Positions 1,400 to 2,497 of a stretch of 5,875 nt of DNA are shown in pieces. Source of the DNA: a virus. Its lineage: Duplodnaviria; Heunggongvirae; Uroviricota; Caudoviricetes. The stretch lies in IMG/VR virus record IMGVR_UViG_2529292977_000021, one strand, 5' to 3'. Position 1 is the first letter of the stretch, and each line of letters opens with the position of its first letter. A model generated the notes under the pieces. The model ran no database searches and had not been told where the DNA came from. It saw only the letters and a program-made list of their open reading frames with translations. The translations under genes and the position numbers were made by a program.

Positions 1400-2497
1400 T
1401 CACCCCCTGAATCCCGGCGGAATTTCGGTATCCGGTTCAGAAATATGATTCACACAACGCTGGTTGTTCGTGCCGCTTACCGGGAGCAACCAGGGGTTTT
1501 CAAAATTCCGGTCCGGCCCAAAAAACGTCGTCGCTCGCTGAACAAATTCCGTTCCCGCTTTCCCGGTCGCCGCCAGGTATCTCGCGTAACGCCTCACACC
1601 ATCCAGCATGGTCTCTGGTGGCACCCCCTCGCGCAATCTGGCCTTCCAGGCACTGAAAGCGGATTTCTTCGGGTTTGCCCCAGCACGCAACGGGTATTCC
1701 CGCCAGACCTGTTCGAACACATCCGGATAATCCACTCGTCCCACAGACTGCCCGGTGCTTTCCGGGACTACCCGATCGGCTTCCCGCTGAATGGCGGAAT
1801 CGGCTTCAGGCTGCTGCAGTTGGTGTGATTGCTCCGACCCTGCGGTCATCACCTGCTGCACAGCGCCCGAATCGGCTTCCGGTGTCGTGCCTGCTGGCTG
1901 ACCAGGATTGACGGTCTGAACATCCCCTGCCTGGTTCGTGGTGTTTTTTTTGCCATGAACCATAGTGTTTTTGTCCTGTTCCTGTTCTTTCTCCTGCTCC
2001 TGTTCCTGTTCCTGTTCTTGGCTTCGAAGCCCCTTAAAAGCCCCTTCGAAGCCCCTTACCGAATTTCGGCTATTATTCCGCCTCACATCCAGATGGAAAT
2101 CCGTTTTATATCTGTCGTAAAACACTGACAGAAAAGCGTTTTCAGGTAATGATGCATACTCATTCCTGACACCTGCACAACGGTTATCGCCAGGCTTCAA
2201 CGTTTCCCCAACCTGCCAGGCTGCCATTTCATGGACCCAGACCATCTCTGCATCATGGTCATAGCTACAAAAACCAGCTTCAACAGCCCTTTTAAGCCCC
2301 TTTGAAGCCCCTTCCAGACCAAGCCCGGTTTCATGAGCAAGGTATAAAACTGGCAGGTAATACAAACCCAGCATATTTGCGTGAGGGGATGTCATCAGGT
2401 AAAAAGCAACAACTTGCGCTTCTGCACCCGCCTTTCTAAGTTCTCTCCCCGTTTCTCCCAGCCAGAATCGCGGAGAAACTTTTGCGTAATCACGCAT
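1400..2497 (-). CDS. Phage replication initiation / replisome organizer protein (O-like, YdaU-like), with an EQ-repeat linker
   Basis: Long minus-strand ORF immediately upstream of the dnaC-like gene. Preferred start is ATG at 2497..2495 (MRDYAKVSPRFW...) with GAGGT 4 nt upstream; the ORF track extends to 2608 (402 aa) but that extension has no SD and overlaps a TATAAT/AGGAGG signal on the other strand. Contains a low-complexity QEQEQEQEQEKEQEQ linker. Family assignment is from context and recalled similarity. Confidence 0.8.
   Translation of the reverse strand: MRDYAKVSPRFWLGETGRELRKAGAEAQVVAFYLMTSPHANMLGLYYLPVLYLAHETGLGLEGASKGLKRAVEAGFCSYDHDAEMVWVHEMAAWQVGETLKPGDNRCAGVRNEYASLPENAFLSVFYDRYKTDFHLDVRRNNSRNSVRGFEGAFKGLRSQEQEQEQEQEKEQEQDKNTMVHGKKNTTNQAGDVQTVNPGQPAGTTPEADSGAVQQVMTAGSEQSHQLQQPEADSAIQREADRVVPESTGQSVGRVDYPDVFEQVWREYPLRAGANPKKSAFSAWKARLREGVPPETMLDGVRRYARYLAATGKAGTEFVQRATTFFGPDRNFENPWLLPVSGTNNQRCVNHISEPDTEIPPGFRG
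1975..2016. repeat. Tandem hexanucleotide repeat (CCTGYT)x7 inside the initiator gene, encoding the (EQ)n linker
   Basis: Units read directly: cctgtt cctgtt ctttct cctgct cctgtt cctgtt cctgtt. Unit length 6, so copy-number change is in frame. Confidence 0.9.
2022..2058. repeat. Iteron-like direct repeats, cluster 1: three AAGCCCCTT copies at exact 11-bp spacing (candidate origin iterons inside the initiator gene)
   Basis: AAGCCCCTT at 2027-2035, 2038-2046 and 2049-2057. The 15-mer CTTCGAAGCCCCTTA occurs exactly twice (2022-2036 and 2044-2058). An origin function is inferred by analogy to ori-lambda inside gene O. Confidence 0.5.
2285..2326. repeat. Iteron-like direct repeats, cluster 2: AAGCCCCTT at 2294-2302 and 2305-2313 with degenerate flanking copies
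   Basis: Same 9-mer, same orientation, 11-bp spacing, about 260 bp from cluster 1. Degenerate copies AGCCCTTTT (2285-2293) and AAGCCCGG (2321-2328). Moderately AT-rich DNA lies between the clusters. Confidence 0.45.

Follow-up and report, generated by a model that had tools for sequence, protein, structure and literature searches.

Candidate initiator-binding iterons inside the replication initiator gene of a prophage

Where does replication begin in a prophage, and what are short, evenly spaced repeats doing inside the coding sequence of its own initiator? This question is raised by a 5,875-bp stretch of tailed-phage DNA (IMG/VR record IMGVR_UViG_2529292977_000021; referred to below, at its full length, as the window), which is 100% identical to a prophage of Escherichia coli O157:H7 TW14359 (NC_013008.1, ~1.175 Mb). 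One of its genes encodes a protein, named 'hypothetical protein' in RefSeq, that appears to be a replication initiator, and two clusters of a 9-bp repeat lie within this gene. The repeat reads AAGCCCCTT on the plus strand and AAGGGGCTT in gene sense. An original prediction, made from the sequence letters, had proposed these repeats as candidate origin iterons. The analysis presented here makes it probable, although not assured, that the AAGGGGCTT clusters are initiator-binding iterons of a theta origin embedded in the initiator gene. The proposal gained support from frozen codons, from a phased cluster (B) that changes its orientation between lineages and from the initiator context, and from these we infer binding of the initiator and firing of the origin.

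Direct reading and a pattern search placed exact copies of AAGCCCCTT at positions 2027-2035, 2038-2046, 2049-2057 (cluster B), 2294-2302 and 2305-2313 (cluster A), all of them on the plus strand, and no sixth exact copy was present on either strand of the window. As ~0.045 copies would be expected by chance (2 x 5,867 / 4^9), the claim of five exact copies in two clusters, with one orientation and a helical-turn period of 11 bp, is well founded. Tandem Repeats Finder gave a period of 11 for both arrays, and two 42-nucleotide (nt) blocks surrounding them (2021-2062 and 2277-2318, 256 bp apart) are 79% identical in register. The degenerate copies that had been added to the second cluster are weaker, and neither is significant alone: the copy at 2284 (two mismatches) is in register with the other cluster (Table 1), whereas the copy at 2321 is probably due to chance. 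Copies of AAGCCCCTT with up to two mismatches number 23 in the window, compared with 19 expected. The last full unit of cluster B is followed by a partial inverted unit, which together with its neighbour forms the palindrome GGCTTCGAAGCC (2020-2031). Both peptides said to be encoded by the repeats, EGASKGLK and EGAFKGLR, are indeed present in the minus-strand open reading frame (ORF). As 11 cannot be divided by 3, the reading frame changes from one unit to the next, and the units within one cluster fall in all three frames (R-G-F / E-G-A / K-G-L), which speaks for a primary DNA repeat with the peptide as its by-product.

If EGAxKGL were a structural peptide and the similarity of the DNA coincidental, the codons of the repeats should vary freely. 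A genome scan yielded 39 loci (45-79% amino acid (aa) identity; guanine-cytosine (GC) content 40-69%) from Citrobacter, Raoultella, Acinetobacter, Caballeronia, Cupriavidus, Janthinobacterium, Dyella, Pseudoxanthomonas, Gemmatimonas and others. Nearly all of these loci have cluster A at gene nt ~185 and ~196 with at most one mismatch, across Enterobacteria, Acinetobacter, Burkholderiales, Xanthomonadales, Gemmatimonas and other host groups. In a codon alignment of 32 homologous genes (<90% DNA identity, hosts of 40-69% GC), the codons of cluster A were nearly invariant. These are (with the background use of the codon in the same genes in parentheses): (i) GAA in 27/27 (0.49), (ii) the first GGG in 29/30 (0.22), (iii) GCT in 25/29 (0.17), (iv) AAG in 25/25 (0.59), (v) the second GGG in 27/30 (0.22) and (vi) CTT in 28/32 (0.12). 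By contrast, the serine codon across the 2-bp spacer of cluster A is free in its third base (TCG/TCA/TCT/TCC), and the synonymous entropy of further conserved Gly, Leu and Ala codons in these genes is 1.5-2.5 bits. Owing to the phylogenetic relatedness of the loci, the counts out of 32 are not independent events; the comparison of units with neighbouring codons is made inside the same sequences, and thus the contrast holds without independence of the loci. The synonymous-site comparison suggested with the original prediction therefore favours constraint at the DNA level. Across the homologues, adjacent units are spaced by 11 bp in 64 of 76 cases, the unit core is essentially invariant across all sites, and the 2-bp spacer prefers CG, which creates a CTTCGAAG junction.

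Cluster B of the homologues comprises 2-3 units and is always located directly 5' of a conserved AAGCCAAGARCARGAR and a dipeptide-repeat linker. Its units run in direct orientation in Enterobacteria and a few other lineages; most lineages have them inverted, and several show a mixture. Both orientations occur within E. coli and Shigella, and the Shigella phage 75/02, which carries the Shiga toxin (Stx) gene, combines cluster A at nt 185/196 with an inverted cluster B at nt 440/451. Inversion swaps the encoded peptide from EGASKGL to EAPSKPL. The partial inverted unit (AAGCCAAGA) is recognisable at nearly every homologous locus, and the codons concerned are AGC for Ser159 in 25/25 genes and CAA for Gln160 in 20/25. 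In a metagenome-assembled contig (L034), an intact initiator gene is preceded, 1.5 kb upstream, by a 5'-truncated, frame-broken remnant of the gene (positions 1365-1960). In this remnant, cluster A has grown to seven exact tandem units, and cluster B, at the usual distance, is made of one direct and three inverted units followed by a (GAACAR)n repeat. Such a frame-breaking expansion implies that the array evolves independently of the reading frame, and the remnant may be either a relic that retains just the origin or an additional origin.

Because synonymous sites are frozen, orientation flips alter the peptide and the array of the remnant has expanded at the expense of the frame, these sequence comparisons indicate that it is the DNA of the repeats, and not the encoded protein, on which the constraint acts. 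The explanation by a peptide repeat can appeal to the six residues E62, G63, A64, K66, G67 and L68, situated in helix 3 of the domain modelled below, which are invariant or nearly so in homologues, so that the protein is under constraint at this place too. It does not accommodate synonymous sites that are frozen only within the units, a cluster B whose peptide changes upon inversion, or units that are read in three frames and, in a second protein family described below, on both strands. It was rejected as refuted by the codon analysis and retains a negligible probability. An action at the RNA level has a different basis: the clusters of most lineages are perfect inverted complements of each other, separated by ~240 nt, so that cluster A and an inverted cluster B might pair over ~20 nt of mRNA and control translation or stability. 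However, the direct repeats of the window and of all Enterobacterial loci cannot pair, it is one specific sequence that is conserved and not compensatory pairing, and nothing at the RNA level would call for 11-bp phasing. As the clusters of the window are in direct orientation, which contradicts it, RNA pairing was rejected as well and is extremely improbable.

The linker behind cluster B forms the boundary of the N-terminal module, and almost all homologues have a dipeptide-repeat linker after cluster B, with a repeat that varies by lineage (EQ, DK, SN, EA and others). The location of the repeats beside the EQ linker, as described in the original prediction, is right for the 2027-2057 cluster only; the cluster at 2294-2313 is part of the sequence encoding the folded DNA-binding domain. 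Among O157:H7 genomes the EQ linker repeat is polymorphic in length (one query matched over 671, 665 and 659 nt), which points to slippage in 6-bp steps. Window positions 1402-1971, encoding the C-terminal half of the initiator, show 92% DNA identity to coliphage 'replication protein O / primosomal protein I' genes, whereas the N-terminal half had no megablast match among phage records, and the gene therefore appears to be a mosaic with its junction at the EQ linker (~1971). Cluster B and the linker might be a module-boundary sequence, kept because it favours the homologous recombination by which phages exchange N- and C-terminal domains. In keeping with this, the mosaic junction coincides with the distal edge of the linker repeat and the C-terminal domains past the linker are highly diverse; on the other hand, cluster A, the 11-bp phasing, the orientation flips and the seven-unit expansion are left unexplained, and the linker repeat itself differs between lineages, which makes a recombination role very unlikely. 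The repeats travel with the N-terminal module while the C-terminal domain and the partner gene are exchanged, the downstream partner being a DnaC-like gene, a DnaB-like helicase gene or another gene, depending on the lineage.

Does this module have the properties of a DNA-binding initiator? Residues 1-150 were modelled with AlphaFold2 from 104 diverse homologues (predicted local distance difference test (pLDDT) 90.1, predicted template modelling score (pTM) 0.83); this model replaced a full-length one, built from 16 sequences, which was poor (pLDDT 52.8). The modelled winged helix consists of helix 25-36, strand 45-47, helices 50-57 and 60-73, a hairpin (77-88) and three further helices. Residues E62-L68, encoded by cluster A, form the first half of helix 3 in the model. 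Helix 3 occupies the recognition-helix position of canonical winged-helix proteins, and the codons of cluster A overlap the start of this predicted recognition helix. A Foldseek search against viral models gave weak matches ('Replisome organizer', E 4e-4; others 1e-2 to 1e-1), the best of which include 'phage replisome organiser N-terminal' proteins, and a sequence profile search of the PDB with the initiator returned no match even at E 10. The model thus points to a DNA-binding fold of the replisome-organiser type.

At the level of families, the initiator (searched as a 402-aa ORF at E <= 0.01) matched no Pfam entry, Phage_rep_O (PF04492) included, while PHROG 1701 'DnaD-like helicase loader' matches it over the full length (E 3e-150) and its C-terminal half also matches 'replication initiation protein' PHROGs. 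The PHROG family, the winged-helix fold resembling phage replisome organisers and the adjacent downstream DnaC-like/DnaB-like gene all agree with the earlier assignment of the gene as a replication initiator; the DnaC-like loader is the presumed partner of its C-terminal domain. The start codon is most likely at 2497 rather than 2608, as this is the RefSeq start and all homologues begin with MRDY there. The last 24 codons (window 1400-1471) encode a tail, EPDTEIPPGFRG, that matches the extreme C-terminus of E. coli DnaT (E 0.002) and is kept in homologues with otherwise unrelated C-terminal domains; the tail possibly serves as a short motif on which the loader or helicase docks. An identity of the whole protein as DnaT (primosomal protein I), a name given to homologues in some phage records, was rejected, as just these last 24 residues match NF002770, with 17.7 bits versus a cut-off of 201.

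The module is widespread. The N-terminal 165 residues of the initiator have >1,600 relatives at 90% clustering, the N-terminal region is present in 477 of 5,426 complete E. coli genomes, and the module was also found in Stx1 phages of the Eru4 type from Shigella and E. coli, as well as in phages of Klebsiella, Acinetobacter and Ralstonia. When viral contigs were scanned for exact pairs of units at 11-bp spacing, at least 120 contigs were recovered, compared with a handful expected by chance for 18 specified bases (the size of the collection being known only roughly). Of these, 80 were examined. The N-domain of the initiator (family 1) is encoded by 47 of them, in 45 cases with units at nt 150-235, and in two further contigs the family-1 gene is cut by the contig ends. 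About 24 of the 80 (AT-rich, GC 30-42%) encode a different initiator-like protein (MAKRFTDTEKWKKPF...), designated family 2, with units at gene nt 37-78 and ~310-395, the latter right in front of a (DK)n linker; their translation uses other frames and may follow either strand (RGLQGAYK, KPLxSPLQGA). No Pfam family was matched by family-2 proteins, and hhalign comparison of the N-domains of both families (probability 4-37%) aligned the repeat-encoded peptide alone, with no significant homology. The only cultured-phage homologue of family 2, gp50 of Pseudanabaena phage Pan5 (L162, 2501-3307), is devoid of the 9-mer; at the position of the first cluster it has AAAAGCCTTTTTTAAAAGGCTT, a variant palindromic AAAGGCTT-type sequence that is possibly a diverged site. 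One IMG/VR contig (L120, GC 0.42) contains ~30 exact AAGGGGCTT/AAGCCCCTT copies in both orientations within ~4 kb (2788-6600), many of them as adjacent inverted pairs, outside any recognisable initiator gene.

The presence of the same 9-mer in dissimilar families means either that their N-domains are undetectably related or that another factor reads the site. A host protein or a conserved phage protein would account for two unlike initiator families with the same 9-mer in the same layout, and for the contig with about 30 or more dispersed copies. Yet the hosts range from Enterobacteria to those of GC-30% phage contigs, and we know of no universal bacterial DNA-binding protein of such specificity. 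Moreover, the sites stay inside the N-domain coding region while neighbouring genes and C-terminal domains vary, and helix- and strand-like segments follow one another in the same order and at roughly the same spacing in both N-domains (alignments compared by eye with the family-1 model). A remote homology of the two N-domains is plausible, and reading of the site by another factor is decidedly unlikely. Both families have in common two 11-bp-phased clusters 240-300 bp apart, of which the second abuts a dipeptide-repeat linker, and the users of the 9-mer extend from Enterobacteria to GC-30% lineages. It is conceivable, albeit doubtful, that AAGGGGCTT is an ancient, near-universal iteron of a large class of tailed-phage origins. 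If so, the family-1 site would be frozen by also encoding the beginning of the very helix that reads it, so that the DNA-binding protein and the sequence coding for it are locked together in a self-referential way, and unrelated co-resident prophages with the module could fire or titrate each other's origins.

An origin also needs a place to open. The spacer between the clusters has a mean GC of 0.516, versus 0.546 and 0.559 for its flanks (35 genes), and the lowest-GC 40-nt window falls inside the spacer in 21 of these 35 genes; in the window, the low-GC patch at 2105-2169 is a candidate DNA-unwinding element. This dip is suggestive at most, because the encoded F/Y/K/D-rich peptide would give the same one. 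What the original prediction called moderately AT-rich DNA between the clusters amounts to a dip in GC that recurs among homologues but is modest in size. Scans for promoters and terminators gave nothing beyond the shuffled expectation. An imperfect inverted repeat just past the linker was considered as a conserved part of the origin and rejected, since perfect 7-9 bp inverted repeats occupy the corresponding place in only 10 of 37 homologous genes (among them L005-L008, L013, L015, L016, L032 and L037).

Several observations weigh against an origin at this place. There is no strong AT-rich unwinding element, the spacer being ~3-4 GC points below its flanks, and no DnaA box was found at up to one mismatch. 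Classical iteron origins are usually orientation-sensitive relative to the unwinding element, and the free inversion of cluster B is unusual in this respect. Two homologues deviate from the pattern, one (L038) having no units and the other (L035) cluster B only. Finally, the 9-mer is common to two initiator families without detectable homology. The sites might then be bound by the initiator for purely regulatory ends (as a roadblock, in autorepression, or for handcuffing and titration in copy control), with unwinding elsewhere in the prophage. The lack of a convincing unwinding element between the clusters suits this possibility, and so do five Acinetobacter homologues (L009, L012, L013, L016 and L019) with 1-3 extra units between -37 and -15 relative to the start codon of the initiator, which look like an autoregulatory operator. 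These candidate autoregulatory sites are absent from the E. coli window. It is also known that the iterons of plasmids act in both initiation and control. Against a solely regulatory role, neither the 5.9-kb window nor an 8.7-kb locus (L001) contains a further 9-mer, which would leave the initiator without an alternative site nearby. In addition, the in-gene sites of lambda and SPP1, relatives by logic, are the origin, and the two-cluster layout is kept in the frame-broken remnant, where no gene is left to regulate. A purely regulatory function is therefore an unlikely alternative.

In-gene origins have precedents in lambda and SPP1, and under the origin reading both clusters, the ~236-bp spacer and the adjoining linker repeat would constitute the prophage origin of theta replication. 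After induction, the early operon on the minus strand of the window (gene order cro/ydaS - ydaT - X - initiator - dnaC-like), which is of the rightward type, would be transcribed. Initiator molecules would then bind side by side at both clusters on one face of the helix, as the 11-bp spacing implies for adjacent proteins. The distance of ~240 bp between the clusters suggests looping or wrapping of the spacer: the two bound clusters may pair, or wrap the intervening DNA, and thereby destabilise the low-GC patch. The C-terminal domain would in turn recruit the DnaC-like loader with host DnaB. In this scheme we infer the binding of the initiator, the melting of DNA by that binding and the place of melting. 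The features discussed are compiled in Table 1.

Table 1. Features of the putative origin and the surrounding genes (positions refer to the window)
Feature	Position	Strand	Description
Hexanucleotide repeat, CARGAR in gene sense	1966..2017	-	~7-8 copies; encodes the (EQ)n inter-domain linker; Tandem Repeats period 6
Conserved partial inverted unit, AAGCCAAGA in gene sense	2016..2024		One 11-bp step past the last full unit
Iteron cluster B (candidate)	2027..2057		Three exact 9-bp units, 11-bp period; encodes R148-L157 (RGFEGAFKGL); directly before the EQ linker
Inter-cluster spacer	2058..2293		236 bp; holds the lowest-GC stretch of the gene (~2105-2169, GC 0.33-0.38)
Third unit of cluster A, degenerate (CAGCCCTTT, + strand)	2283..2292		In register with the third unit of cluster B
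Iteron cluster A (candidate)	2294..2313		Two exact units (2294 and 2305), 11-bp period; encodes E62-L68 (EGASKGL)
Imperfect inverted repeat	1932..1962		T8/A8 loop; just past the linker; membership of the origin uncertain
Initiator gene	1400-2497	-	365 aa; winged-helix N-terminal domain (aa 1-~145, predicted), EQ linker, C-terminal domain
DnaC-like AAA+ helicase-loader gene	647-1393	-	Pfam IstB_IS21 and Bac_DnaA; NCBIfam PRK12377 (1e-152) and DnaC (5e-88)
Overlapping opposite-strand ORF pair	2576-3224		Between ydaT and the initiator gene
YdaT-family gene	3238-3663	-	
YdaS/Cro-like regulator gene	3660-3962	-	
DUF1627 gene		-	Early operon
DicA/cI-like repressor gene and PaaA2-ParE toxin-antitoxin pair		+	

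The remaining genes of the window deserve brief comment. Within the overlapping pair, the plus-strand ORF (2576-3031) matches NCBIfam NF033230 'ECs1072 family' (E 2e-30) and is the choice of RefSeq, and the minus-strand ORF (2715-3224) matches phrog_8304 end to end (E 4e-120) and agrees with the direction of the operon. The PaaA2-type antitoxin and ParE-family toxin are encoded at 4452-4923, within the immunity region, adjoining the repressor gene. An 11-mer, GTTTAGTGTTT, occurs five times (two exact copies, three with one mismatch) at 3973-4041 and 4995-5027; three copies occupy the region that separates the divergent cro-like and cI-like genes, the remaining two are located downstream of ParE, and the sets look like OR- and OL-type operators flanking the immunity region.

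The repeats provide a concrete candidate origin for a common module that is annotated just as 'hypothetical' or 'DNA-binding protein', and the double 9-mer is a simple signature by which such putative origins can be located without protein annotation. They are, furthermore, a natural instance of dual coding, in which a predicted recognition helix and its putative DNA target share the same nucleotides, and in which orientation flips and frame changes separate the constraint on the DNA from that on the protein. As an identical site is found in many prophages, cross-activation or incompatibility of co-resident prophages becomes a direct experimental question, relevant to induction and to the biology of Stx phages.

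Origins embedded in initiator genes are of a textbook kind. A search of full-text literature (subscription journals being mostly outside its scope) for the 9-mer, alone or with iteron, origin and phage, retrieved nothing relevant, and one on in-gene phage origins retrieved lambda, SPP1 and plasmid work only; an Acinetobacter paper mentioning iterons was set aside, as it concerns an unrelated plasmid. The papers that define the Eru types describe the module proteins as being of unknown function and mention neither an origin nor repeats (PMC8951638, PMC8044961). Thus the kind of origin is known, and for this initiator family we found it described nowhere, a prior description being possible.

How, then, does the putative origin compare with known systems? 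The iterons of lambda are ~19 bp long; there are four of them (six in Stx phages) in one array, followed by a clear AT-rich tract. Here, in contrast, 9-bp units are spaced by 11 bp in two clusters ~240 bp apart, with variable orientation and a weak low-GC patch. The initiator of the window also differs from that of lambda in the missing Pfam Phage_rep_O match, and its loader is DnaC-like and not lambda P. What they share is a loader gene immediately downstream and an early operon starting from a cro-like gene. The lambda origin is located in the middle of gene O, and the likeness extends to an in-gene position near the boundary of an N-terminal DNA-binding and a C-terminal loader-recruiting domain, and to multiple phased sites (PMC7466680).

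In the Bacillus phage SPP1, oriL lies within gene 38, which encodes the replisome organiser G38P, and has repeated G38P-binding boxes with an adjacent unwinding element; a further likeness is an initiator that has no AAA+ domain and is followed by a separate loader and helicase (PMC5737612). The predicted N-domain fold also matches replisome organisers, weakly (E 1e-4 to 1e-1), but there is no detectable sequence similarity to G38P, the sequence and arrangement of the sites are different, and the hosts here are Gram-negative. The Rep-ori of staphylococcal pathogenicity islands (SaPI) and iteron plasmids with winged-helix initiators (RepA, pi, RepE) are likewise counted among the closest known systems. 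The Eru4-type replication region of Stx phages (Shigella phage 75/02 Stx, POCJ13) has ~80% aa identity in the N-terminal domain, the same DnaC-like partner and the iteron layout; it differs in that the window prophage is not an Stx phage and that its cluster B has three direct units, versus inverted ones at 440/451. What is unusual here is an identical 9-mer across distant hosts and two initiator families, a freely inverted cluster, and the overlap of one cluster with the codons of a predicted recognition helix.

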